A stretch of 64,000 bases of DNA from Candidatus Calditenuaceae archaeon (GTDB lineage Archaea; Thermoproteota; Nitrososphaeria_A; Caldarchaeales; Calditenuaceae): assembly GCA_025058225.1 (NCBI GenBank), contig JANXEE010000025.1, positions 11,302 through 75,301 of the forward strand, written 5' to 3'. Numbering within the stretch: the stretch's first letter is position 1; every line of letters starts with the position of its first letter. Made by a program: the position numbers and the translations under genes. Positions 1 through 40,877 of this stretch are shown here, one piece after another. The notes below the pieces were generated by a model that was given only the letters and a program-made list of their open reading frames with translations, searched no databases and was not told where the DNA came from.

Positions 1-2606
1 TGCTGCCCGCTGACAGGATCGGGCTGGACCGGGAACGTGAGGTTAACAGGCACGCCACCATCCTTCCACCAGATTCTCATCGTGTCGGGGTCGCTGCTCT
101 CGAAGGGCTCAATGCCTGAGATTACCCTCATTCTCACCAAGTCACCCTCCTCGCTCGTCTCGACGAAGGAAGAAGCGATTCTACTCGCCCCTATGTCCTT
201 CTGGACCCTGAACCTTCCGAAGTGCTCCGTACAGCCAATCACACCAGGCAACACTCCGCTTGTCACCCAGACCCTGCTGACGAAGTACCCTATCTCCGTA
301 GTTACCCTGATCAGGTCACCGGTCTTCACGCCGAGCTTCGCAGCGTCCTGTGGGTTCATCCAGATCGGGTTCTTATGGGATATCTCCGTTAACCACTTGG
401 CGTTGTTAGACCTAGTGTGAATCTGGGTTGGAACCCGCATAGTTGAGACCAATACGAACTCGCCCCGTTCCCTGTCAAGGTCGGCGTGATGGACATGGCT
501 CTTCACGTAAGAGGGAATAGCGTATTCCGGCCAACCCCACTCCTTCAGCGTTCTCGAGTAGAACTCAATTCTCCTGGACGGTGTAGGGAAGCCCAGCAGC
601 GGTTTCCCGTCAACCACCACACCTATCCGCCAACCCTTTTCGGTCCTCTCACTCGCCGGCATAGGGACCATGTTGATCCTCTTGGGAGGGTTAGGTGAGT
701 AAATCACACCCGTTGCCTCATCGAAGAAAGCGTCTCTCAGCTCCTCCTCGCCGAGGGGTGTCTCATGGCTCATGTATACGTTTCTCGCCATCTCATATGC
801 TCCGAATCTCCTCATGTATGAGAGAGGATCCATTCCAGCTTCCCTTGCCCTCTCCTTGAGTCCCGGGACCGAGTTCTCGAAGATCCACCTGTAGAACTCG
901 TCAGCCGTTATCTTCTCGCCGGGCCTGTAGGGCGACTCGAAGTTCTTCCTTATACCGAGTTTTCCGTCGGGGTCGATGCGCCAAGAGAGCTCTATCCAAA
1001 ACTCGGCCTCGTCCATCACCTCCGCCGGTGCTTTCAACTCCTTCCCCAGCTTCTCTCTGATCACTGAATTGATGGGCTGTCTGAACCCTATCCAGATCCC
1101 CGAGTAGGACTCATAGCTATGGAGGTCATGCCTCTCGAGGGCCGTCCCAACAGGCAGAATGAGGTCGGCATACCAGGCAGTCTCGTTCCAGAAGGGGGTG
1201 AGGGCAGCTATGAAGCCTATCTTCTCCTCGTCCGTCAATACCTTACTCCAGAGGAACCCGTCTGGATAAGTCACGATGGGGTTGAAGGCCCTTGGCATGT
1301 AGACCGAGAGCTTCCCTCTCCCCTCGAGGAGCATGTGGGGCAGAATGAAGCTCATTTCGTGGAAACTCAGCGGGAACTCTTTCGGAAAGAGCAGATCGCT
1401 CCAGACCCTCTGAGGCTCCGGGTGGTGAGGCACTCGGGGGACGAACTTGTGGAAGACGTTGAGGTCCATTCCTCCAACCGTCCCGATGCTTCCGGTCAAG
1501 GCGTGAAGGAAGACGAGGGCCCTCGAGACCTGCCAGCCGCCAAGGTTCCCCGCACACGCTGAACGCCATGTGTGGGATGAGAAGGCACCACCGGCCCTAG
1601 CTATCTCCAATGCCAGCTGCCTCACGGTCTCTGATGGAACACCGCACTCTTTCTCGACGAACTCTGGTGAGTACGCGGAGTAAATCGCCTTCAGTACTCT
1701 GATGAAGTTCTCAAAGGTCGGCTCCTTGTCCGGACACTCCTCCATCATGTACTCCTTCCAGTTGACCCATCTCCTCAGAAATTCCCTGTCGTAGAGGTCC
1801 TCCTGAAGTATCACGTTCGCTATTCCCAGTAGGAGCGCCGCCTCGGTTCCAGGCCAACACGGTATCCAATAGTCGGCCATGGCGGCAGTATTGGAGAGCC
1901 TGACGTCTATTACAGCGATTTTCGCACCCTTCTTCTTCGCGTCAATGATCCTTTGAGCGTGGGGATTGAAGTAATGTCCGCTCTCTAGGTGGTCGGAGAG
2001 CAACAGGATGAACCTGGCGTTCTCGAAGTCAGAGCAAGGCCTGTCCGCCCCCATTATCAGTGCATACCCAGCCCTAGCGGATGAGGAGCAGACGTTGGTG
2101 TGGCTGTTCCTTCCGTCGACTCCCCACGACTGGAGCACCCACTCCATGAAGCCGTCCTCACCGGGCCTTCCTACATGATACATTACCTCGGTCAACCTGC
2201 CTTCCACAATGCATTTCCTTATCCTCTCTGCGAGCATATTGATGGCCTCGTCCCAGCTCACCCTGACCCATCTTCCCTCCCCTCTCCTGCTCCCCTCCTC
2301 ACGCTTGAGCGGATACGGAATCCTCTCCGGATCATAGAACTGATTGAGGCTCGCGGGGCCCTTGGCGCAGTTCCGTCCTCTGCTGGTAGGGTGGAATGGA
2401 TTCCCCTCTAACTTCGTAATCTCGAGCGACTCCCTGTCGACGTACGCAAGGAGCCCACACCCGGCCTCACAGTTGAAGCATACCGTGGGGACTATTAGAT
2501 ATCTTCTCTTAACTCGTCGCGGCCAGACCTTCGGGTCGTACTCCTCCCAGTCGTCCCACTTCTCTTGAGGGGGATGGCTCAGGAATCTCTGCACGACACC
2601 TGACAT
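1..2606 (-). CDS. Molybdopterin (bis-PGD) oxidoreductase catalytic subunit, DMSO-reductase family (Psr/Phs/Ttr-like); C-terminus runs off the window
   Basis: Absent from the ORF track because there is no stop codon inside the window. My reverse-strand translation from the ATG at 2606 stays open for 868 codons. Motifs: MSGVVQRFLSHPP...VCFNCEAGCGLLAYV (N-terminal 4Fe-4S Cys cluster), NSHTNVCSSSARAG (candidate Mo-ligand Cys), NPIWMNPQDAAKLGVKTGDLIRV (C-terminal barrel domain). No twin-arginine leader. Confidence 0.85.
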   Translation of the reverse strand, partial: MSGVVQRFLSHPPQEKWDDWEEYDPKVWPRRVKRRYLIVPTVCFNCEAGCGLLAYVDRESLEITKLEGNPFHPTSRGRNCAKGPASLNQFYDPERIPYPLKREEGSRRGEGRWVRVSWDEAINMLAERIRKCIVEGRLTEVMYHVGRPGEDGFMEWVLQSWGVDGRNSHTNVCSSSARAGYALIMGADRPCSDFENARFILLLSDHLESGHYFNPHAQRIIDAKKKGAKIAVIDVRLSNTAAMADYWIPCWPGTEAALLLGIANVILQEDLYDREFLRRWVNWKEYMMEECPDKEPTFENFIRVLKAIYSAYSPEFVEKECGVPSETVRQLALEIARAGGAFSSHTWRSACAGNLGGWQVSRALVFLHALTGSIGTVGGMDLNVFHKFVPRVPHHPEPQRVWSDLLFPKEFPLSFHEMSFILPHMLLEGRGKLSVYMPRAFNPIVTYPDGFLWSKVLTDEEKIGFIAALTPFWNETAWYADLILPVGTALERHDLHSYESYSGIWIGFRQPINSVIREKLGKELKAPAEVMDEAEFWIELSWRIDPDGKLGIRKNFESPYRPGEKITADEFYRWIFENSVPGLKERAREAGMDPLSYMRRFGAYEMARNVYMSHETPLGEEELRDAFFDEATGVIYSPNPPKRINMVPMPASERTEKGWRIGVVVDGKPLLGFPTPSRRIEFYSRTLKEWGWPEYAIPSYVKSHVHHADLDRERGEFVLVSTMRVPTQIHTRSNNAKWLTEISHKNPIWMNPQDAAKLGVKTGDLIRVTTEIGYFVSRVWVTSGVLPGVIGCTEHFGRFRVQKDIGASRIASSFVETSEEGDLVRMRVISGIEPFESSDPDTMRIWWKDGGVPVNLTFPVQPDPVSGQ

Positions 2607-2659
2607 AGATGTTAATTATTTGAATATTTGGTAGTAATCCATTAATTCGTGCGATAATG

Positions 2660-2669
2660 TTTATATATA
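2660..2669. promoter_or_regulatory. TATA-like element TTTATATATA in the divergent 136-bp spacer
   Basis: AT-rich, near-palindromic TATA-like sequence between the divergent Mo-enzyme gene (start 2606) and the FccB-like gene (start 2743). Which gene it serves is not determined. Confidence 0.35.
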
Positions 2670-2705
2670 GGTTACTGAAAAATTTTGGTATGCAAACGTA
2701 TGATA

Positions 2706-2725
2706 TTGCATTCGTTTGCATTCGT
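2706..2725 (+). repeat. Perfect tandem direct repeat (TTGCATTCGT)x2, then TGC
   Basis: Read directly from the sequence. It lies 18 nt upstream of the FccB-like ATG and downstream of an AAAAATTTT element, so about where a transcription start or operator would sit. Confidence 0.7.
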
Positions 2726-2742
2726 TGCTGCGGTGATGGCTG

Positions 2743-4122
2743 ATGGCAGGACAGGCAACCAACAGGAGGGCAGTTCTCGGGGCAGTTGCGGGTGTGTTGG
2801 TAGGAGGAGTAATAGGAGCGGTCTCAGGGTCAACGCTCTTCCCACGTGAGGTCGTGAAGGAGAGGGAGGTAATAAGGACGGAGACGAGGATCGCCGAACG
2901 TACGGTCACGCAAACCGCCGAGAGGACTGTCACACAACCCGTAATGAGGCCGGCCGCAAGCCCTGGTGACTTCACTTGGAAAGAGTCTGGCAAGACGAAC
3001 ATCGTAGTGGTAGGCGCGGGTCCTGCAGGCGTTCAGTTCTCTAAAAGTATTGTAGAATTAATGGGAGACAGAGTTACCGTGACGATCCTAGAGAGGAACC
3101 TATCCTGGGTCTCAGGACCAGCACACGTCGACTTCGTAGCGGGAGTCAAGAAGATGGAACAGGTCACTATGACTCTAGAGAAGATCCCGAGACCAGGTAT
3201 CAGGATTGTGAACGCAAGCGTCGTTCAGCTGAGACCGGAGGAGAGGACCGTATACACCAATTACGGGACAACGAAATACGATGTTTTGGTTTTAGCTCCG
3301 GGAATAGACCTCGCCACTTGGGAGATACTCGGCCTGAGTAAGGAGAGGAACCTGCACGCATGGGACCCTGTCCGTGCGGTTATGCTTAGAGAGGAACTCG
3401 CCAAGATAACTAGTGGGAACGTGGTCTTCGGTGTCCCGGCCGCGCCGTACAAGTGCCCCCCTGCACCCTATGAGGTCGCGATGCTTTCCAGAGAGTTTAT
3501 CAACGAGCAAGGCAAGGGCGACAGAGTCAAAGTGACGGTGCTCGACTCCAACTCGGGGCCACAGCCACCGCCAAAGGCTTCCTATTTCAGGGAACATATG
3601 ACGAAACTCGGGATAGATTACAGGCCCAACTTCAAGATAGCGGAGGTCAATCCTGAGACGAAAGAGGTCATCTCGGTGGACGGAGAGAAAGTCAAGTACG
3701 ATGTCCTCTCGATCCTCCCACCTAACGTTGCACCCTCCTTCGTTAGGGAGGCGGGACTTGGAACGACGTACATGGACGTAGATCCGACCACGTTCAGGAG
3801 CCGGAGATACGATGATGTCTATGGCATTGGGGACGTAATACTCTCACCTTACACGAGGTCGATGTACGTAGCGATGAGATCTGGAAGGCGATTGGCTGAA
3901 TTACTGGCCGAGAGGTTGGGCGTTTCACGACCGGAGAAGACATCCGTCTACAACATATGCTGGAGTTACGTCAACAAGCGGGAACTCACGGTGATAGAGG
4001 TCGAGTGGGACGATGCAGGCAGGACAAAGACCGGGTTCCCCAGGGTAGGGCCGCCAACGGCCGAGAACTTCTCTAGGAGACAGGAGTGGGAAAGAGCGAG
4101 TCTCCTAGCGCTTTACGGATGA
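2743..4122 (+). CDS. Tat-signal FAD-dependent sulfide dehydrogenase flavoprotein (FccB/SoxF/SQR-like pyridine nucleotide-disulfide oxidoreductase)
   Basis: 459 aa. The N-terminus MAGQATNRRAVLGAVAGVLVGG has a twin-arginine motif plus a hydrophobic region. VVVGAGPAGV is a dinucleotide-binding fold. YKCPPAPYE is a redox-Cys motif. The linker carries a tandem AERTVTQ x2. Confidence 0.75.
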   Translation: MAGQATNRRAVLGAVAGVLVGGVIGAVSGSTLFPREVVKEREVIRTETRIAERTVTQTAERTVTQPVMRPAASPGDFTWKESGKTNIVVVGAGPAGVQFSKSIVELMGDRVTVTILERNLSWVSGPAHVDFVAGVKKMEQVTMTLEKIPRPGIRIVNASVVQLRPEERTVYTNYGTTKYDVLVLAPGIDLATWEILGLSKERNLHAWDPVRAVMLREELAKITSGNVVFGVPAAPYKCPPAPYEVAMLSREFINEQGKGDRVKVTVLDSNSGPQPPPKASYFREHMTKLGIDYRPNFKIAEVNPETKEVISVDGEKVKYDVLSILPPNVAPSFVREAGLGTTYMDVDPTTFRSRRYDDVYGIGDVILSPYTRSMYVAMRSGRRLAELLAERLGVSRPEKTSVYNICWSYVNKRELTVIEVEWDDAGRTKTGFPRVGPPTAENFSRRQEWERASLLALYG

Positions 4123-4128
4123 AAAGAC

Positions 4129-4902
4129 ATGTTAGGGAGGCTATCCCCTGTCATATTTGGAGCAATTCCGCTGATTTTAGCGTTGATACAGGTGAACACC
4201 TACGTCGCACCAGTCGGTACAACGACCACACAGTTGCTCTTGAAATCAGATGAATATCATGTGATTGATTTGAGCCTGAACCCCGGAGACAGATACGTAA
4301 TAGAAGTCGCAACGTCTGGCCTCAGCGACGTGTATGTCATCGAAGCAAATCATTTCCATCATTTCAAGGAGACTGGCAAACCACCCTCCTCGGCGGTCGC
4401 CTTCTCGATGGTGAAGTCTCTCAGCCTTGCACTGCCCACCAACTCCGGTGGGGACTACAAACTCGTCATCAAACAGTTGAAGGACGGGGAAGTTAAAGTA
4501 ACCATCAAACATGGGCTCGTCGAGGAGGCCGTGAGCAGAATGAGGAAAGGAGAGAGCGTGTTGAGGAACTCGTTAGTGGCCGAGCTACCACCTGGACAGG
4601 TCTACGTCATTCCCATATACCAATTCGTGATGGGGACGCAGCTGGAGATGGAGGTGCAGAGAGTCGAAAAGGCCGCAGTCTTGAGCTTCTCAGAGTACCT
4701 CGCTTACCGTAGAGGCAGTAAGAGCTTGGAGGCCCTGTGCGTCACGGAGAGGTGCATCAGCGGTTCAGGAAGCTTAAAGCTCTCCTCTGGAGACTTCGGA
4801 GACGTCTACGTCGTAGTTCACGTCACGAAAGACGTCGCGGCGCTGAATTTGAGGGTGATCGCAACACCGGAGATGTTGCTGTACTCCGGAACCTGCGGAT
4901 GA
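4129..4902 (+). CDS. Hypothetical membrane-anchored / secreted beta-rich protein
   Basis: 257-aa ORF starting 6 nt after the FccB-like stop. N-terminal hydrophobic helix VIFGAIPLILALI. Recurring strand-like motifs: GDRYVIEV, DVYVIE, GQVYVIPI, GDVYVVVHV. No catalytic motif recognised. Confidence 0.5.
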   Translation: MLGRLSPVIFGAIPLILALIQVNTYVAPVGTTTTQLLLKSDEYHVIDLSLNPGDRYVIEVATSGLSDVYVIEANHFHHFKETGKPPSSAVAFSMVKSLSLALPTNSGGDYKLVIKQLKDGEVKVTIKHGLVEEAVSRMRKGESVLRNSLVAELPPGQVYVIPIYQFVMGTQLEMEVQRVEKAAVLSFSEYLAYRRGSKSLEALCVTERCISGSGSLKLSSGDFGDVYVVVHVTKDVAALNLRVIATPEMLLYSGTCG

Positions 4903-4929
4903 CAAGTCGCCACCGCACGCTTCGGAAGG

Positions 4930-5394
4930 GTGCGTTACGGAATGAGGTCAGATCAGGTGCTCGCTGTCGCAACGGTCTTGGTCTTCACGATCGGAATGGT
5001 GAGCCTCCACGTAATCAAAGAGCCAGTAAAGGGGGTCGAGACCACAACTCATACATCACCCAAGAAGGAAGTAAAGATCACGAAGGTCACCGTTACGATC
5101 AGGCCCGGGTCTTACATCGAGGGGCGACATCCGACCTACGACCCACCGTCGGTGAGGGTAACTCTAGGGGTCAACAACACGGTCGTGTGGATCAATAGAG
5201 AGGAGGTGGACGTACGCCACGACGTAACACACGAACCGTGCTTCCGTCACGAACCGGACTGCATCCCGGCCTTCAGGTCTGCTCTGTTCGCACCGGGAGA
5301 GAGCTTTCAGTACACGTTCGTCGACAGGGGAGAATACCGGTACGTCTGTGCCGCACACCCATGGATGAGAGGTGAGGTGATTGTTAAAGGGTGA
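4930..5394 (+). CDS. Membrane-anchored type-1 blue copper protein (cupredoxin, amicyanin-like loop)
   Basis: 154 aa with an N-terminal TM helix (VLAVATVLVFTIGMV). C-terminal copper loop YVCAAHPWMRG has Cys-x2-His-x2-Met spacing, with an upstream His in VRHDVTHEP. The start could be GTG 4930 or ATG 4942. Confidence 0.75.
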   Translation: MRYGMRSDQVLAVATVLVFTIGMVSLHVIKEPVKGVETTTHTSPKKEVKITKVTVTIRPGSYIEGRHPTYDPPSVRVTLGVNNTVVWINREEVDVRHDVTHEPCFRHEPDCIPAFRSALFAPGESFQYTFVDRGEYRYVCAAHPWMRGEVIVKG

Positions 5395-5401
5395 CAACCC
5401 G

Positions 5402-6535
5402 ATGAGGTCACTTCGAGCGAGTGGCATAGCGTCCTTGATGATGCTGATTTCGGCTTCAGCAGTCTACCTCTATGGAGGACACCTCCAGCACTCCCTGTTC
5501 ATCATCTTCGGTTTGATATACGGTTACGCGATCTACAAGTCAAGGCTTTGCTTTGCAACTGCTATGTACGGTAACCGAGAGCTATTCAAGGGGATACTGG
5601 TTAGTTTAGCGATAGCATGCCTGGCATCTTACGCGATCATTAAGAGCGGCATGAACATTCCACCGTCTACACCTATAGGCCCAAACGTGTTGATAGGCTC
5701 GATTCTTTTCGGGATGGCTATGCCCTTCGCAGGAGGTTGCATGAGCGGGACCCTGTTCAGGGTGGGGGGTGGACAGGCGAAATCGTTGGCTGCGCTGTTG
5801 GGCATTTTAATCGGTAACATAATTGGTGCAGGTATCCTATGGAGGTATGTTGAACCATTCGTCGACATCGGGAGGGGATTTAACATTTTAGCGACCATAG
5901 GACCCGATCTATCGTTGGCGCTTAACCTAGGAATCGTCCTGACGTTGTTGTATTTCGTCATGAATGGTAACAGACTTAGGGATAATAAGGGTTCGTTAGC
6001 CCCCGTAAACGGATTGATCGCCGTTCCGTCCTCTATTATCCGTCTTATGAGAGGTGATTACTGGCCGGCTTGGCTGGGAGGGATCATATTGGCGGCCGTC
6101 TTCGCTGTACAGTTCGCGTTCTATTCAACATTAACCATCCAACTTCCTTTGGCTAGGTCCGTCCTCTGGCTCACGGCACCAATCCTGCCTCCTTCAGATA
6201 ACCCATGGGTCCTGAGGTTTGGTCTAAGGGAACCATACAACGACCCCTCCCTCCTCCTGGTCGTAGCGTTCGTGGTGGGTGCAATCGTCGCGAGCACCTC
6301 CTCAGGGAGCTTCGCCTGCTTCTCGGGCGCCAAACGTACAGATGTCATCATCGGGTTCATCGCGGGTATAACCATGGGAGTATCCGTTTGGATCGCTGTT
6401 GGCTGCAACATCTCAGGTTTTTGGGCCGCTGTCGCGACACTAAGGCCCGAAGGCTGGCTTTACGCGATCGGGCTCTTTATAGGTGCTAGGACCGGCCTCA
6501 AGTTACTGGAACAGTTGATAGTCGCCCGGGTGTAA
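5402..6535 (+). CDS. YeeE/YedE (TsuA-like) sulfur-compound / thiosulfate permease
   Basis: The track ORF starts at TTG 5381. ATG 5402, preceded by AGGGTGA, is more plausible. Polytopic protein with Cys-bearing motifs RLCFATAMYG, FAGGCMSGTLFRVGGG and VGCNISGFW, typical of YeeE/YedE. Confidence 0.8.
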   Translation: MRSLRASGIASLMMLISASAVYLYGGHLQHSLFIIFGLIYGYAIYKSRLCFATAMYGNRELFKGILVSLAIACLASYAIIKSGMNIPPSTPIGPNVLIGSILFGMAMPFAGGCMSGTLFRVGGGQAKSLAALLGILIGNIIGAGILWRYVEPFVDIGRGFNILATIGPDLSLALNLGIVLTLLYFVMNGNRLRDNKGSLAPVNGLIAVPSSIIRLMRGDYWPAWLGGIILAAVFAVQFAFYSTLTIQLPLARSVLWLTAPILPPSDNPWVLRFGLREPYNDPSLLLVVAFVVGAIVASTSSGSFACFSGAKRTDVIIGFIAGITMGVSVWIAVGCNISGFWAAVATLRPEGWLYAIGLFIGARTGLKLLEQLIVARV

Positions 6536-6541
6536 AAGCAG

Positions 6542-8032
6542 GTGACACGCTTCGCTTTCGTGATAGACCAGAGCCGTTGCATCGGGTGTCATGCCTGCAC
6601 GGTAGCCTGCAAGATGGAGAATCATGTCCCCGTGGGTGTCTTCAGGACTTGGGTGAAGTACATAGAGAGGGGAGAGTTCCCTAACTCGAGGAGGTTTTAC
6701 GCGATCCTCAGATGCAATCATTGCGATAACGCTCCATGCGTCCGTATATGTCCGACCTCTGCCCTCTATTACAGGAGCGACGGTATAGTGGACTTCGACA
6801 AGGGGAAGTGTATCGGGTGTAAGGCCTGCATGCAGGCGTGCCCCTATGACGCCCTCTACATCGACCCGGATGATAACACTGCCGCAAAGTGCCACTTCTG
6901 CGCTCACAGGATTGAGCAGGGGCTGGAGCCAGCATGCGTCATCGTCTGTCCGACGCGCGCCATCTTATGGGGCGACATCGATGACCCGGCCAGCTCGATA
7001 TCGAAAGTCCTTAGGGACAATCCTGTAACAGCGAGAAAGCCTGAGCAGGGGACCAAACCCAAGCTGTACTATATAGGAGCCGACCAGCACGTCTTGACCC
7101 CGATGGCTCATCGTAGGGAATCGACCTATATGTGGTCGGACGTAATCGAGGAAGATAGGGTCGGCGGAGCCCTCGCTACAGACTCACAGGTTGCCTACGA
7201 TATCCCACATTCAAGTCCTTGGGGATTGAAGATCGCCACCTACATCTACACCAAAGCCATAGCAACAGGTCTAATGGTCATGCTCTCCATCTTGATGCTG
7301 CTCTTCCCTAGGGACCTCGGGCCCCAGGCTCTTACCCTCATCCCCCTCCTATCGCTGTTCTTCCTAGGTGTGACCGCTCTCCTCTTGGTCTTGGACCTCA
7401 AGAGACCACTCAGATTCGTTTACGTGATATTGCGGCCGAACCTTTCCTCTTGGTTGAGCAGGGGCAGCCTTCTAATATTGGCTTTTGGTCTGGTCATTAT
7501 TCTGTGGATTCTTTGGCGGAACGAGACACTCATCGTCCCAACACTGTTGATCGCGGGTGCGACCGCCGGATATAGCGGCCTACTTTTCGGTCAATGCGAG
7601 GGCAGAGACTTCTGGCAGTCCCCCTCAGCGCTCCCCCACTTCGTCTTCACCGCTCCTCAAGCGGGCACGGCGCTTTTGGTGCTTCTGATGCCTGTACTTC
7701 AAGTCCACGGAGGAATCCAGTCGTTCCTAGGCGGGTCGTTAGCGTTGTGGAACACCGTCGTTACCTTAATAATAGTCTCGGACCTGCTTCAGCGCCATAC
7801 CACGACCGAGGCCGAGGCCGCGAAATCGTATCTAGTGAAGGGAAGGGGTGCTCTACCTTTCTGGACGATGACCTTCACACTCGGCGGCATTGTGTCGACT
7901 GTTATGGCCATCTTGTATTCCGCTTCACTGAACTATAATTACGGGCTAGTAGCGTCACTAGCGTCACTGAGCGGGTTGGCCGTTTACGAGGCGCTTTGGA
8001 TACGGGCAGGCCAGATAGCCCCCTTGAGTTAG
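6542..8032 (+). CDS. Fusion of a four-cluster [4Fe-4S] ferredoxin subunit (PsrB/DmsB/NrfC type) with an NrfD/PsrC-like integral membrane quinol-interacting domain
   Basis: 496 aa, GTG start. Residues 1-190 carry four Cys clusters: CIGCHACTVAC, CNHCDNAPCVRICP, CIGCKACMQACP and CHFC...CVIVCP. Residues ~220-496 consist of about 8 hydrophobic helices. Confidence 0.8.
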   Translation: MTRFAFVIDQSRCIGCHACTVACKMENHVPVGVFRTWVKYIERGEFPNSRRFYAILRCNHCDNAPCVRICPTSALYYRSDGIVDFDKGKCIGCKACMQACPYDALYIDPDDNTAAKCHFCAHRIEQGLEPACVIVCPTRAILWGDIDDPASSISKVLRDNPVTARKPEQGTKPKLYYIGADQHVLTPMAHRRESTYMWSDVIEEDRVGGALATDSQVAYDIPHSSPWGLKIATYIYTKAIATGLMVMLSILMLLFPRDLGPQALTLIPLLSLFFLGVTALLLVLDLKRPLRFVYVILRPNLSSWLSRGSLLILAFGLVIILWILWRNETLIVPTLLIAGATAGYSGLLFGQCEGRDFWQSPSALPHFVFTAPQAGTALLVLLMPVLQVHGGIQSFLGGSLALWNTVVTLIIVSDLLQRHTTTEAEAAKSYLVKGRGALPFWTMTFTLGGIVSTVMAILYSASLNYNYGLVASLASLSGLAVYEALWIRAGQIAPLS

Positions 8033-8054
8033 TCAGCCAACATCAGAGCTCGCC

Positions 8055-8981
8055 ATGTTGAAATACGCGCCGCTAGGAATGACGGTAGGTGTGTTGGCCG
8101 GTTCGATCGGTGATGAAGCCTCAGCCCCTTCGAGTCCTGAGGTTCTCCTCATTTTGCTGGCCCTGTTCACTTTCTCCTTCGTGATAGGGCTGATCTCGCC
8201 GATGGCCGGTATAGGTGGAGGAGTGTTGTTCACCCCTATACTGTTGGCCTTCACGTCGATAAACGTAGACCTAGTCAGGGGAACAGGAATAGCGCTGGCC
8301 ACCGCCAACTCCTTCACCGCGTCAGGAACCTTCGTCAGGGCGGGGGTGGTGAACTTGAGGCTGGGGCTCCTTGCGGCGCTCATAGCCGCAACCTGTGCGA
8401 TCGTTGGGGTGTTCCTCAGGCCTCCGGGGGGTCCTCTGCTGAACTCACTCTTAGGGCTAATTATGCTATCAGTGGTCCTGACGTACAACATTATGAAAGG
8501 AGGAGTTGAATATCCTCGCGCAGTCAACAGTGACTTCCTCGCTGAGAGGCTCCAGCTTAACGCTTCGTACTACGACAGAGCCCTCAACGAACACGTTAGT
8601 TACGCAGTTGAAAGGACAGTTTTTGGATTTCTGCTGTTCGGCGGAATGGGGTTCATCTCGGGGGCTTTCGGGGTCGGGGCCGGATGGGGAGCGGTTCCCA
8701 TAATCAACCTGTTGATGAGGGTGCCACTGAGGCCCTCGATAACCACCTCCCAGCTCATCGTAAGCATCAGCGGACTTACTGCGATGTGGATATACGTGCT
8801 TCAAGGGGCAGTCGTGCCCTTAATGGCCATACCCTCGTTGATGGGTGGAATGCTAGGAGTGTTGATCGGAAGCAGGATCGCGGTCAGGGCGGGGGCGCGG
8901 TACATCAGATATACCGTCATAGCCATAATGTCCTTCACATCTCTCCGTCTGCTGTTAAGCGGGTTAGGTATATGGAGGTAG
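8055..8981 (+). CDS. TauE/SafE (TSUP, DUF81) family anion (sulfite/sulfonate) exporter
   Basis: 308-aa polytopic ORF. Duplicated glycine-rich helices (MAGIGGGVLFTPILL and GAFGVGAGWGAVPIINLL) are characteristic of the family. Confidence 0.8.
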   Translation: MLKYAPLGMTVGVLAGSIGDEASAPSSPEVLLILLALFTFSFVIGLISPMAGIGGGVLFTPILLAFTSINVDLVRGTGIALATANSFTASGTFVRAGVVNLRLGLLAALIAATCAIVGVFLRPPGGPLLNSLLGLIMLSVVLTYNIMKGGVEYPRAVNSDFLAERLQLNASYYDRALNEHVSYAVERTVFGFLLFGGMGFISGAFGVGAGWGAVPIINLLMRVPLRPSITTSQLIVSISGLTAMWIYVLQGAVVPLMAIPSLMGGMLGVLIGSRIAVRAGARYIRYTVIAIMSFTSLRLLLSGLGIWR

Positions 8982-18703: not shown

Positions 18704-18755
18704 CGCACGTCCCATTTAAATCTCAGGAATCGTAATCTCTGATTGTGAAGTAGTT

Positions 18756-38432: not shown

Positions 38433-39362
38433 GTGAAATACCGCGATCTGGTCCGTAATGCCGTGAGGATAGTCTCTCTGGTTCCCAGCGTCACCGAGAC
38501 GCTTTACGAGTTGGGGCTCCACGACGAGGTGGTAGGTATCACCTATTCGTGCCCGAACCCGAAGCCCAACTCACACAGGCGCGTTGTGGTGAGGCCGCTG
38601 CTCGACACGGAGAACATGAGTCAGCCGGAGATCGACAGGGCAGTCCGGACCCGTCTCGCCACCGGTAAACCGCTGTACGAGGTGGACTACGAGGCTCTCC
38701 TTGACCTCCGACCGGACACGGTCTTCGTTCAGGACCTCTGTCACGTCTGTGCGGTAACCCCCGATCAGGTCAAGGTCAGCGGTTTCCCGAGGACGGTCGT
38801 CGTATCACCGAGGACGCTGGAGGAGTCGTTGGAGGCCGTGCTGGAGGTCTCGATGATCACCGGGAGGCGAACCGAGGGCAAGGAGCTGGTCGAACGTATC
38901 AGGACGAGGTTGGAGAACGTCAGAGAACGTGTCTCGGGGCTGTTCGGCAAAAGGGTCGTCTATATGGAGTGGTGCGATCCGCCCTTCTGCAGCGGCCACT
39001 GGGTCCCCGAGATGGTGAGGATGGCCGGAGGCAGAGACTTCGGGTCACCGGGCGCCCCTTCTCGGCGTGTCGAACCGGAGGAGCTGGTAGCCTTCAAGCC
39101 CGAGGTGGTCGTGGTGGGGCCCTGCGGCTTCAGGCTCGAGAGATCGCTCGAAGACGCGAGGCTCATGTCGAGACACTCCTGGTTCAGGAGGCTTCCGGCC
39201 TTCGCGCGGCGGGAGGTCTACGCGGTTGACGCGAAGAGGTTCTTCAGCGGCCACGGCCCCTCCATCGCAGGCGGAGTTGAGGCGCTGGCCGAGGTCCTTC
39301 ACGGAGAGCACGTCACGGATCTGGCCCCGGAGGGCTCGTACGCAAAAGTCGCGCTTGATTAG
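38433..39362 (+). CDS. BtuF/TroA-like periplasmic-binding-protein-fold protein (cobalamin/siderophore binding), no signal peptide
   Basis: 309 aa. RIVSLVPSVTETLYELGLHDEVVGIT is the class III PBP N-terminal pattern. No hydrophobic leader. Confidence 0.7.
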   Translation: MKYRDLVRNAVRIVSLVPSVTETLYELGLHDEVVGITYSCPNPKPNSHRRVVVRPLLDTENMSQPEIDRAVRTRLATGKPLYEVDYEALLDLRPDTVFVQDLCHVCAVTPDQVKVSGFPRTVVVSPRTLEESLEAVLEVSMITGRRTEGKELVERIRTRLENVRERVSGLFGKRVVYMEWCDPPFCSGHWVPEMVRMAGGRDFGSPGAPSRRVEPEELVAFKPEVVVVGPCGFRLERSLEDARLMSRHSWFRRLPAFARREVYAVDAKRFFSGHGPSIAGGVEALAEVLHGEHVTDLAPEGSYAKVALD

Positions 39363-40332
39363 GCCGCCGCAGGGTCAGCAGGTAAAACGCCAGCACCGCC
39401 GCGGTCAGAGAGAGTGTAACGTAATACGTCAGCAGGCGCCACCTGAGGACCAACTCCCAGTCGCCGACACCGTAAACGCCGGTGAGGTAGAGGTAGACAC
39501 CCGCCTCCGTGACACCGGCCCCACCGACCGAGACCGGTAAGACGCCCAGAGCGTTGCCGGCCATCGTCGAGTAGAGGGCCCTCACCACACCTCCGGCGGA
39601 GAGGTCGCCGAGGAGCACCAGGAGGACCAGCGAAGGCATCACCGTAACGGCCAGGGAGGCTATGATCACCGCCGCCGTCCTCGAGAAGCTCTCGGAGTCC
39701 ACCAGAACCCTCAGCACACGCCTCATCTCCCTGACGCCCTCACCCATCGCCCTCCTCACCTGCGGCGGCAACAGCGCCGTGAGCCTCCCTGCCCGTACCC
39801 CGCCGTCACCTGTCCCACCCGCGTATGCGGCGAGTATCGAGACGCCCACGATCTGCAGCGTCGAGACCACCAGCACCACGACGGCTATAGCCCATGAACC
39901 GACGAGGGTCGCGTAAATACCTGATATCACCATCAGGGGCGCAGTTACAGCGACGTCGACCACCAGCTCAGCGGTCGCAATCCAAAGGGCTGTGACCGGC
40001 CGCTCGCCCTTCCTGGCCAGCATGACCGCGCGGGCCGCCTCGTCTGCAACGAAGGGTACAGTGGTCAACGCGAAGAACTCGCTGGCGCCCCTCATGGCGA
40101 GGGCCTCACAGAACCCGACCCGTGTTCTGCTCGCAGACCCGACGATCAGGTAGAACCTCAGACCCTGAGAGGCCATTCTGAGCAGAGAAAGGGCCACGGA
40201 GAGCGCAACCGTCTGGGCAGGCAGCTCGTAGACGTCTGACAGCGAAACGCCCGAGACCCTGGAAAGGGTCATCAGCACGGCGACGGCGATCGCTGCACCC
40301 GCCAGCGACAGCTTGAGCTCCCTGCCCGTCAA
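39313..40332 (-). CDS. Polytopic membrane protein, UPF0104 / lysyl-PG-synthase-TM-region-like (flippase-like)
   Basis: The track ORF (491 aa) extends upstream through the methyltransferase gene in another frame, with Arg/Pro/Gly-rich junk. I trimmed it to the TTG at 40332, which overlaps the methyltransferase TGA (TTGA). The remaining ~339 aa are almost entirely TM helices. The start is uncertain. Confidence 0.55.
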   Translation of the reverse strand: MTGRELKLSLAGAAIAVAVLMTLSRVSGVSLSDVYELPAQTVALSVALSLLRMASQGLRFYLIVGSASRTRVGFCEALAMRGASEFFALTTVPFVADEAARAVMLARKGERPVTALWIATAELVVDVAVTAPLMVISGIYATLVGSWAIAVVVLVVSTLQIVGVSILAAYAGGTGDGGVRAGRLTALLPPQVRRAMGEGVREMRRVLRVLVDSESFSRTAAVIIASLAVTVMPSLVLLVLLGDLSAGGVVRALYSTMAGNALGVLPVSVGGAGVTEAGVYLYLTGVYGVGDWELVLRWRLLTYYVTLSLTAAVLAFYLLTLRRPNQARLLRTSPPGPDP

Positions 40333-40877
40333 ATCGACCTCCTCGAAACGACACAGATGGACTGCTGGAGGACCCTGAGGAATCCGGGAAACCTGTCGCT
40401 GAACGGGATGAAGGAGTGAAGGAGCAACTGCATCTTGTCCGTGAGCTCGAACCCGTTCCTCCTCAAAGCCCTCTCGAGCGACCACCACGTGAACCGGTGG
40501 ACGTGGGTGGGGTCCGCTAGGCTGTCGTAGAGCCCGAGGCCGAGGAAGTTGGGTGTGACGACCACCAGTGAGCCCCCCGTCCTGAGGACCCGCCTGCACT
40601 CCCGAAGGCAGAGGTTGAGTTCCGCGACGTGTTCGATGACGTCCAGCGCTATCACCCAATCGAACGACCCTCCCCTGAAGGGCAGGTGGGTTGCCGATGC
40701 TACCACGTCCGGCCTCATACGTCTGTCCAAGTCGAGCCCCACGTAGCTCCTGTACTCGGTCCTCGAACCGTATCTGTTGATTCCGCATCCGATCTCGAGC
40801 AGGTCCCCCGACGTTCCGACGGCCCTCTTCACGAGGCCCTCCTTGTGTTTCCAGTACCTGTGGGGCTCGATCCTCAC
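40329..40877 (-). CDS. Class I SAM-dependent methyltransferase (Methyltransf_11-like)
   Basis: 182 aa. Motifs: DLLEIGCGINR, VGLDLD, FDWVIALDVIEHV, LRTGGSLVVVTPN. Confidence 0.85.
   Translation of the reverse strand: MRIEPHRYWKHKEGLVKRAVGTSGDLLEIGCGINRYGSRTEYRSYVGLDLDRRMRPDVVASATHLPFRGGSFDWVIALDVIEHVAELNLCLRECRRVLRTGGSLVVVTPNFLGLGLYDSLADPTHVHRFTWWSLERALRRNGFELTDKMQLLLHSFIPFSDRFPGFLRVLQQSICVVSRRSI

Follow-up and report, generated by a model that had tools for sequence, protein, structure and literature searches.

Two described systems are among the closest to the gene cluster that we analyze here. In the flavocytochrome c sulfide dehydrogenases (FccAB), known structurally from Allochromatium vinosum (1fcd), Thermochromatium (3vrd), and Thioalkalivibrio (5n1t), the FccB flavoprotein, which carries flavin adenine dinucleotide (FAD), is paired with a dihaem cytochrome c subunit, FccA. 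In the Sox system, represented by SoxYZ, SoxF, and SoxT1A of Paracoccus and Hyphomicrobium denitrificans (PMC11582611), an extracytoplasmic protein of two β-sandwiches, whose terminal arm of small residues bears a cysteine, is accompanied by an FccB-like flavoprotein and a three-cysteine channel of the YeeE family. We compared with these systems a gene cluster in a 64,000-nucleotide stretch of DNA from a Candidatus Calditenuaceae archaeon of hot springs, a member of the Caldarchaeales (Aigarchaeota) (assembly GCA_025058225.1, contig JANXEE010000025.1, positions 11,302 to 75,301 of the forward strand; hereafter “the window,” with all coordinates counted from its first letter). Here, a gene for an FccB-type flavoprotein is followed by a gene for a 257–amino acid protein of no described family (U257) and a gene for a membrane-anchored blue copper protein (cupredoxin). 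We propose, at a probability of roughly 0.55, that the flavoprotein is a membrane-tethered, outward-facing sulfide (reduced-sulfur) dehydrogenase of the FccB/SoxF type, rebuilt for an archaeon without c-type cytochromes. Judging from genomes only, the cytochrome would have been replaced by the cupredoxin (by a Rieske protein elsewhere), with U257 as the constant partner.

The flavoprotein gene (positions 2743 to 4122, + strand; 459 amino acids) encodes the Pfam domains Pyr_redox_2 and FCSD_central, and its product has its nearest relatives in Candidatus Caldarchaeum metagenome-assembled genomes (MAGs). In a sequence search of the PDB, the closest solved relatives were FccB chains (1fcd at 5e-30, 3vrd, and 5n1t). 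A profile built from the flavoprotein clade scored 199, 197, and 184 bits on the FccB structures, with an alignment that reached the last residues of 3vrd, versus 122, 97, and 78 bits on the sulfide:quinone reductases (SQRs) of human, Acidianus, and Aquifex. The AlphaFold model [mean predicted local distance difference test (pLDDT) score of 84] retrieved FccB first in a Foldseek search, at a template modeling (TM) score of 0.84 to 0.85 and a root mean square deviation of 2.7 to 3.2 Å, followed by SQRs at TM 0.77 to 0.79. We also built a rough neighbor-joining tree from 72 relatives and the FccB structures, a sampling outside which the named SQR types III, IV, and VI lie. The flavoprotein fell within a superclade whose members bear twin-arginine translocation (Tat) leaders and whose sister is canonical FccB, while the second main branch consisted of leaderless proteins. 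By sequence, clade profile, predicted fold, and placement in the rough tree, the flavoprotein groups with the flavocytochrome c flavoproteins and not with the quinone-reducing SQRs, which bears out the original prediction of an FccB-like enzyme at this locus. Its modeled fold and active site are FccB-like as well.

Three parts can be recognized in the protein: a Tat-type leader or anchor (residues 1 to 33), a disordered Thr/Val/Glu linker (about residues 35 to 80), and the catalytic core (residues 85 to 459). The N terminus carries the sequence NRRAVLG and then the sole hydrophobic stretch (residues 9 to 33), and the twin-arginine pair was nearly invariant in an alignment of 15 flavoprotein homologs. 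In the archaeal flavoproteins, the Tat leader is followed by a linker of ~45 residues, rich in Thr, Val, and Glu and modeled at low confidence, with no obvious cleavage site, and the leader probably stays in place as a membrane tether. The flavoprotein, U257, and the cupredoxin have one hydrophobic stretch each, in every case at the N terminus. The flavoprotein is thus predicted to be exported by the Tat pathway to the outer side of the membrane, and the near-invariant arginine pair together with the single N-terminal stretches agrees with the outward orientation proposed earlier for both the flavoprotein and the cupredoxin. We consider an outward-facing enzyme of the FccB type highly probable.

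The redox-active cysteine pair, Cys238 and Cys406, was invariant in the 15 homologs and aligns with Cys161 and Cys337 of FccB in the 1fcd numbering. At the position of Cys42, which links the FAD in FccB, the flavoprotein has Ser124, invariant in the clade within a VSGP motif. The protein hence resembles FccAB in its fold, in both active-site cysteines, in a match that extends through the C-terminal residues of 3vrd, and in its (predicted) Tat export. It differs in that the cluster has no dihaem FccA, in the serine at the FAD-linking position, in the N-terminal tether and stalk of the archaeal proteins, and in its partners, a cupredoxin and the unrelated U257. Since both FccA and the covalent-FAD cysteine are missing, the flavoprotein falls outside the usual definition of the FccAB family.

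Type III SQRs belong to the same flavoprotein superfamily and have the active-site motif PYKCPPAPYE in common with the window flavoprotein. We therefore weighed the alternative that the flavoprotein acts in effect as an SQR, passing electrons straight to quinone on the outer face of the membrane, with the cupredoxin a bystander or in the service of another enzyme. The type III SQR model (SQR_III) was indeed the only NCBIfam model that the flavoprotein matched well, and the fold scores of the SQRs were only moderately below those of FccB. Yet, the score of 145 bits is far under the model cut-off of 525, and the match covered positions 2 to 316 of the 406 in the model. The last 90 positions, which correspond to the C-terminal part of the SQRs, were unmatched, and the predicted structure ends instead in one helix (residues 440 to 458; PTAENFSRRQEWERASLLALYG) that is charged rather than amphipathic and hydrophobic and that aligned with the C terminus of FccB. 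The leaderless proteins on the second branch of the tree, which resemble type III SQRs, scored 175 to 218 bits on the same model and so lie above the flavoprotein, which in addition has a Tat leader and a long stalk.

Gene neighborhoods bear on the same question. We collected 79 genomic loci around flavoprotein relatives and labeled the neighboring genes according to their motifs and their resemblance to proteins of the window. The closest clade, A, takes in Caldarchaeales, Pyrobaculum, Nitrospirae, Nitrospinota, and a set of thermophilic bacteria (Armatimonadota, Sysuimicrobium, Caldilineales, and unclassified MAGs). The clade next to it, B, consists of Rokubacteria, Methylomirabilota, and other Nitrospirae. 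The U257 gene directly adjoined the flavoprotein gene throughout clade A, in either order, and U257, rather than the cupredoxin, is the universal neighbor of the clade-A flavoproteins. In Caldarchaeales, the order was flavoprotein, U257, cupredoxin, and YeeE (a sulfur transporter); in four of the six complete loci of thermophilic bacteria, it was TusA, U257, flavoprotein, cupredoxin, and YeeE; and in Pyrobaculum, it was flavoprotein, U257, and YeeE. The clade-A Nitrospirae had OsmC, flavoprotein, and U257, and the Nitrospinota had TusA, DsrE, flavoprotein, U257, and a Tat-exported Rieske protein. YeeE was adjacent in 13 of 21 representative clade-A loci, and genes for the sulfur-relay proteins TusA and DsrE occurred in bacterial versions of the cluster.

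The block of flavoprotein, U257, cupredoxin, and YeeE was found in about five Caldarchaeales lineages, at flavoprotein identities down to 59% and between unrelated flanks, and also in four bacterial loci. In all Caldarchaeales lineages found, the cupredoxin gene stood immediately beside the flavoprotein block, even where the flanks were different and a molybdoenzyme was absent. A gene for a Tat-exported Rieske protein lay downstream of the flavoprotein gene in other lineages, directly so in several clade-B loci and after U257 in Nitrospinota. The slot beside the flavoprotein block thus looks modular, a place for a high-potential one-electron carrier that is a cupredoxin in some lineages and a Rieske protein in others, and a modular slot lends support to an electron route from flavoprotein to cupredoxin; this support is circumstantial, and it is the strongest available. 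That most lineages have either a cupredoxin or a Rieske protein in the acceptor slot also speaks against SQR activity, although the relatives from Pyrobaculum, Nitrospirae, and two other bacteria, in which no carrier gene is adjacent, would suit a quinone-reducing enzyme. On balance, we regard an SQR with a bystander cupredoxin as quite unlikely.

In most clade-B loci, the gene directly upstream of the flavoprotein gene encodes a fused SoxY-SoxZ protein, similar in length to U257 and with a GGC motif, so that in this neighboring clade the partner is a real SoxYZ. Nine loci of Rokubacteria, Methylomirabilota, and Nitrospirae (L029, L030, L031, L034, L036, L037, L039, L040, and L042; about positions 7000 to 10300) displayed, in this order, a SoxY-SoxZ fusion, a Tat flavoprotein resembling FccB, and a Tat-exported Rieske protein ending in cysteine, with no other sox genes and without all three genes being present in every locus. 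We found no description of such a SoxYZ-fusion, FccB-like, and Rieske arrangement in the literature that could be searched. In three Nitrospinota loci (L018, L020, and L021), the order was TauE, universal stress protein, TusA, DsrE_2, FccB-like flavoprotein, U257, and Tat-exported Rieske protein, which suggests a capacity for sulfur oxidation and sulfur relay in these MAGs. In Nitrospirae loci L016, L024, and L025, an OsmC-family gene (Pfam, 2e-19) lay 11 to 100 nucleotides upstream of the flavoprotein and U257 pair.

The lack of a haem c partner was confirmed in the window. None of the three open reading frames (ORFs) for the flavoprotein, U257, and the cupredoxin contains the haem-binding motif CxxCH. 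The motif occurred three times in the 64 kb, once in a real gene, where it is the CIGCH within a CxxCxxCxxxC ferredoxin motif of the ORF at 6542 to 8032 and not a haem site; with that one exception, the earlier statement that no ORF of the cluster has a CxxCH motif stands. An ORF with CxxCH adjoined the flavoprotein in none of the clade-A loci either. A survey of archaea found no cytochromes c in phyla beyond Cren- and Euryarchaeota, although Aigarchaeota were not named in that paper, and found them in some Thermoproteales, the order of Pyrobaculum (PMC4429474). The Pyrobaculum loci, which have neither a cupredoxin nor a Rieske gene, fit this known distribution. In an Aigarchaeote that has no cytochrome c complex III, a function as respiratory carriers has been proposed for membrane blue copper proteins (PMC4681859).

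The cupredoxin of the window (positions 4930 to 5394, + strand; 154 amino acids) starts at a GTG codon at 4930, with an ATG at 4942. It matched Pfam Copper-bind at 2e-7, above the cut-off, and the best NCBIfam model was amicyanin. An N-terminal helix (residues 7 to 31) is followed by a stalk rich in Thr and Lys and then by the cupredoxin domain, in which the copper loop reads C140-A-A-H143-P-W-M146. The predicted copper ligands His97, Cys140, His143, and Met146 were invariant in seven orthologs. The Copper-bind match, the anchor, and the invariant ligands agree with the membrane-anchored type-1 copper protein with a Cys-x2-His-x2-Met loop that had been described at this position. His101, Cys104, and Cys111 were likewise invariant in the Caldarchaeales orthologs and were absent from the next-closest stand-alone cupredoxins (L089); these three residues may provide a disulfide or a further site. 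A dedicated cupredoxin beside a periplasmic dehydrogenase has a parallel in methylamine dehydrogenase and amicyanin, an operon pair in which the cupredoxin has the same short Cys-x2-His-x2-Met loop. The parallel is limited in that methylamine dehydrogenase is a tryptophan tryptophylquinone quinoprotein, unlike the FAD/disulfide flavoprotein here, and in that amicyanin differs from the window cupredoxin, which is membrane anchored and has the extra Cys104/Cys111 pair.

The company that this cupredoxin keeps is specific. In a metagenome scan, relatives with at least 53% identity occurred only in clusters with U257, cupredoxin, and YeeE and never beside an oxidase, and relatives with 46 to 50% identity, which lack the Cys104/Cys111 pair, were stand-alone genes next to housekeeping genes. 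We rejected a tie of the cupredoxin to terminal oxidases, as no scanned relative lay beside a haem-copper oxidase; co-occurrence with oxidases rather than with FccB homologs, raised earlier as a competing account, was hence not what the scan of relatives returned. The window itself holds no gene for an oxidase, a second cupredoxin, TusA, DsrE, a Rieske protein, or SoxYZ. Word-indexed protein searches with U257 and the cupredoxin gave only three to four close matches. The four cupredoxins at the same position in the bacterial loci were distant in sequence (37% over 86 residues), and their ligand loop is longer. In a separate observation, loci L108, L128, and similar ones (about positions 5800 to 6300) encode cupredoxins with 38 to 40% identity that lie between a ~340–amino acid protein with a multicopper oxidase–like end (HCH...H...M) and a ~315–amino acid CxxC protein, by its gene content a different conserved copper-protein cluster. 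We consider it probable, on the strength of synteny and of analogy, that the window cupredoxin serves as the one-electron acceptor of the flavoprotein. Our literature search returned no paper that links FccB to a cupredoxin.

U257 (positions 4129 to 4902, + strand) combines an N-terminal signal or anchor (residues 1 to 27) with two β-sandwich domains and an invariant, penultimate Cys256 (GTCG-COOH). No Pfam family, SoxY and SoxZ included, matched any of 19 members, and no relative was found among PDB sequences; among 1.84 billion representative proteins, U257 matched 14 clusters. The AlphaFold2 model, made from a four-sequence alignment, had a pLDDT of 81, with the last four residues below 50, and Foldseek gave only generic tandem β-sandwich matches (jelly-roll or CUB-like) at TM ~0.3. 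In the alignment of the 19 sequences, with identities down to 16 to 20%, five positions were invariant, one of them the cysteine at the C-terminal end. The terminal motifs read GTCG, SSCT, or SGC-COOH, with the cysteine flanked by Gly, Ser, or Thr, and the last or penultimate residue was a cysteine in 31 of 31 homologs. A profile search of the fetched loci returned these 31 U257 ORFs, all beside clade-A flavoproteins and none elsewhere, and the pairwise divergences of U257 and the flavoprotein were correlated with r = 0.89. The bacterial U257 proteins have classical Sec leaders and the archaeal ones a hydrophobic N terminus, and secretion is predicted for U257. In the source annotation, the gene apparently begins at an internal start and encodes 213 amino acids (P0025); the hydrophobic N terminus is conserved in the 257–amino acid orthologs, and therefore the longer form with an export signal is the correct one.

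The SoxY hallmark is a terminal arm in which a cysteine stands among small residues (GGCGG-COOH), and DsrC has a comparable arm. U257 resembles the Sox carrier in being an extracytoplasmic protein with two β-sandwiches and such a terminal-arm cysteine, with an FccB-like flavoprotein and a YeeE-family channel as neighbors and with TusA and DsrE genes in related loci. It departs from Sox in its GTCG, SSCT, or SGC-COOH ends in place of GGCGG, in the lack of sequence or profile similarity to SoxY and SoxZ, and in the lack of SoxXA, SoxB, and SoxCD genes. We tried and rejected the idea that U257 is a diverged or permuted SoxZ-SoxY: hhalign against the SoxYZ fusions gave a probability of 0.3%, Pfam and PDB gave nothing, and the Foldseek matches were generic. 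Because profile-profile homology to SoxYZ is absent, we propose for U257 a functional analogy and not family membership. As a sulfur carrier, U257 is a candidate by analogy, one to which we give somewhat less than even odds.

The constant pairing of the U257 and flavoprotein genes raises another alternative, in which the flavoprotein would be a thiol or persulfide oxidoreductase that acts on the U257 cysteine, loading, unloading, or reactivating it, rather than an enzyme that harvests energy from sulfide, with the cupredoxin draining the electrons. In Paracoccus, SoxF reportedly has such a helper role toward SoxYZ. The strict adjacency of the flavoprotein to U257 in clade A, and to a SoxYZ fusion in most loci of clade B, is in line with this function, as are the TusA, DsrE, and YeeE genes in the clusters. 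So is P0023, a distant flavoprotein homolog (646 amino acids, 26% identity) that is fused to a DsrE_2 sulfur-transfer domain and that is another case in which the flavoprotein family is joined to a sulfur carrier. The conserved catalytic pair of FccB and the architecture on the substrate side, however, fit sulfide as a co-substrate equally well, and this function overlaps with that of a sulfide dehydrogenase to such a degree that sequence cannot separate the two. We judge a dedicated thiol or persulfide oxidoreductase unlikely.

Downstream of the cupredoxin lies a gene for a sulfur transporter of the YeeE/YedE/SoxT family (positions 5381 to 6535, + strand; 384 amino acids; Pfam Sulf_transp, 1e-32). 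In 18 orthologs, Cys57 and Cys120 were conserved at 100% and Cys342 at 94%. We infer these three cysteines to be pore residues, an assignment carried over from the published family (PMC11582611) and not drawn from a structural alignment. The same work provides a precedent for the hand-over of sulfur from SoxYZ to a YeeE-like protein, SoxT1A, in H. denitrificans (PMC11582611). The TusA and DsrE genes in the bacterial clusters likewise favor a role in sulfur import.

The genes on both sides of this block encode parts of a molybdoenzyme module. A molybdopterin oxidoreductase catalytic subunit of the Psr/Phs family (positions 3 to 2594, − strand) is divergent from the flavoprotein gene, and its 3′ end lies off the window edge. 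In tblastn, it matched residues 1 to 861 of a 928–amino acid protein of locus L003 at 78% identity in one frame. Its best solved relative was Thermus PsrA (2vpw, 9e-52), and the matching NCBIfam models were DmsA/PhsA-like. The L003 ortholog begins MQKFLSHPPPDRWDD and has no RR motif. On the other side, a 496–amino acid fusion (positions 6542 to 8032, + strand) joins a four-cluster ferredoxin of the PsrB/TtrB type to an NrfD/PsrC-type membrane part (Pfam Fer4_11 and NrfD; NCBIfam TtrB, 1e-59). The ferredoxin spans residues 1 to 200 without a signal peptide, the hydrophobic stretches begin at residue 235, and the fusion recurs in the Caldarchaeum loci L003, L008, and L088. As neither the molybdopterin subunit nor the ferredoxin domain has an export signal, the Psr-like complex should face the cytoplasm; SoeABC is an example of a cytoplasm-facing molybdoenzyme. 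The module resembles Psr/Phs/Ttr enzymes such as Thermus PsrABC (2vpw) in its molybdopterin subunit, four-cluster ferredoxin, and NrfD anchor and differs from PsrABC in that B and C are fused in one protein and that the catalytic subunit has no Tat leader, which should place its active site on the cytoplasmic side. In a related Aigarchaeote, a putative operon for tetrathionate reductase was described (PMC4681859).

With such a neighbor, the cupredoxin could instead serve the Psr/Ttr-like molybdoenzyme or general respiration, its place beside the flavoprotein being incidental, and the flavoprotein electrons would go to the iron-sulfur (FeS)–NrfD protein or to oxygen. In the Aigarchaeote mentioned above, Beam et al. 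proposed membrane blue copper proteins as carriers to the oxidase or to a “TTR” complex (PMC4681859), and in archaea and bacteria alike, genes for the molybdoenzyme, the FeS-NrfD protein, and TauE are found repeatedly in the vicinity of the block. In L006-type loci of Caldarchaeum, however, the four-gene block persists between other flanks, with no molybdoenzyme or FeS-NrfD gene nearby; the cupredoxin thus goes with the flavoprotein block rather than with the molybdoenzyme. Lacking export signals, the molybdopterin subunit and the FeS domain would also lie on the side of the membrane opposite to the cupredoxin. The potential of type-1 copper is, moreover, too high for donation to the reduction of sulfur compounds. 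We consider service to the molybdoenzyme or to general respiration very improbable.

If the flavoprotein is an FccB-type dehydrogenase that feeds the cupredoxin, four steps can be outlined. First, and likely from homology, the Tat-exported flavoprotein would oxidize sulfide at Cys238/Cys406 beside the FAD, as in FccB. Second, as the gene neighborhoods suggest, electrons would pass from the FAD one at a time to the anchored cupredoxin, which would take the role of FccA, and from there to a terminal oxidase. Third, and less certain, the secreted U257 would act as an obligate partner, and its C-terminal cysteine, on a flexible end, would accept the sulfane sulfur in persulfide form in the manner of SoxY. 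Fourth, the three-cysteine YeeE channel would import that sulfur, or thiosulfate, and further processing inside the cell may fall to the TauE exporter and to the Psr-like molybdoenzyme, which is predicted to face the cytoplasm from its FeS-NrfD anchor.

Several observations weigh against this scheme. No cupredoxin accompanies the close relatives from Pyrobaculum, Nitrospirae, Caldilineales (L023), and an unclassified bacterium (L026), so that the enzyme family can do without one. The replacement of FccB Cys42 by a serine means that the cofactor chemistry of the flavoprotein may differ. U257 has no detectable homology to SoxY or SoxZ and only generic fold matches, so that the carrier idea is based on a single invariant cysteine and the location of the gene. 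The cluster encodes no enzyme that would convert imported sulfane sulfur into a substrate of the molybdoenzyme. Last, the absence of cytochrome c holds for the 64-kb window, to which the search of this genome was confined.

The cluster extends beyond the three genes of the original prediction, which lie at the coordinates first given. Co-directional and with gaps of 6 and 27 nucleotides, these three are consistent with the single transcription unit claimed for them. The unit proved to be larger, continuing to YeeE, the FeS-NrfD fusion, a TauE/SafE-family anion (sulfite-type) exporter (positions 8055 to 8981, + strand; Pfam TauE, 2e-32), and a DUF1634 membrane protein (positions 8972 to 9364, + strand), with the divergent molybdopterin subunit upstream. 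DUF1634 was matched at 2e-6 on the longer ORF 8684 to 9364; we placed the start at the ATG of MEVVRLL, which gives a 10-nucleotide overlap with the end of the TauE gene. The seven tightly packed + strand genes from 2743 to 9364 are separated by gaps of 6, 27, −14, 6, 22, and −10 nucleotides, consistent with one operon.

Between the divergent genes lies an AT-rich intergenic region (positions 2595 to 2742), whose elements we read directly from the sequence. It contains TATA-like boxes at 2660 to 2669 (TTTATATATA) and at 2612 to 2629 (TTAATTATTTGAATATTT). Downstream of the former, in the 5′ region of the flavoprotein gene, an inverted repeat (GCAAACG...CGTTTGCATTCGTTGC, i.e., GCAAACG ... CGTTTGC) spans about 2693 to 2728 and is overlapped by a direct repeat, GCATTCGTTTGC ATTCGTTGC. 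The repeat may be a regulator binding site, and the promoter and operator roles of these elements are putative. The first 2.7 kb of the window appear to lack an ORF because the molybdopterin gene runs off the window edge and so went unlisted; we excluded a pseudogene or an RNA in the region 1 to 2742, where tblastn revealed an intact molybdopterin gene, and an Rfam search of positions 1 to 12000 returned no RNA family. Thermosome and archaeal housekeeping genes surround the cluster. Elsewhere in the window, two ORFs on the − strand (17330 to 18715, 461 amino acids; 39313 to 40788, 491 amino acids) had no Pfam match at 1e-5, and a stretch at 46 to 50 kb with raised G+C (0.66 to 0.68) encodes an ATP-binding cassette iron-type uptake system (FecCD, binding protein, and ATPase).

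How such sulfide dehydrogenases work in lineages without cytochrome c has been unclear so far. The cluster points to a specific solution that can be put to the test, in which a tethered flavoprotein would work with a blue copper acceptor of its own and with a new partner that has a cysteine on its terminal arm. The comparison of loci suggests that FccB-type enzymes are built of exchangeable parts, with a cupredoxin, a Rieske protein, or a cytochrome as the acceptor and U257 or a SoxYZ fusion as the partner. In a more speculative joint reading, which we hold to be possible though well short of even odds, U257 would found a new, rare family of extracytoplasmic sulfur carriers, nonhomologous to but interchangeable with SoxYZ, and would form with the FccB-type flavoprotein, a swappable acceptor, and YeeE a previously undescribed route. 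Sulfide would be oxidized outside the cell and its sulfur delivered to the cytoplasm, which would make this the first defined sulfide-oxidation path in Aigarchaeota, one held in common with thermophilic bacteria, Nitrospinota, and Nitrospirae through lateral transfer. Such a route would link sulfide oxidation outside the cell to YeeE-mediated sulfur import, which is still poorly understood (PMC11582611). If FccB-type enzymes are indeed made of such exchangeable parts, genome surveys that require fccA, or that lump these genes with sqr, misjudge sulfide oxidation in hot-spring archaea, Nitrospinota, and Nitrospirae.

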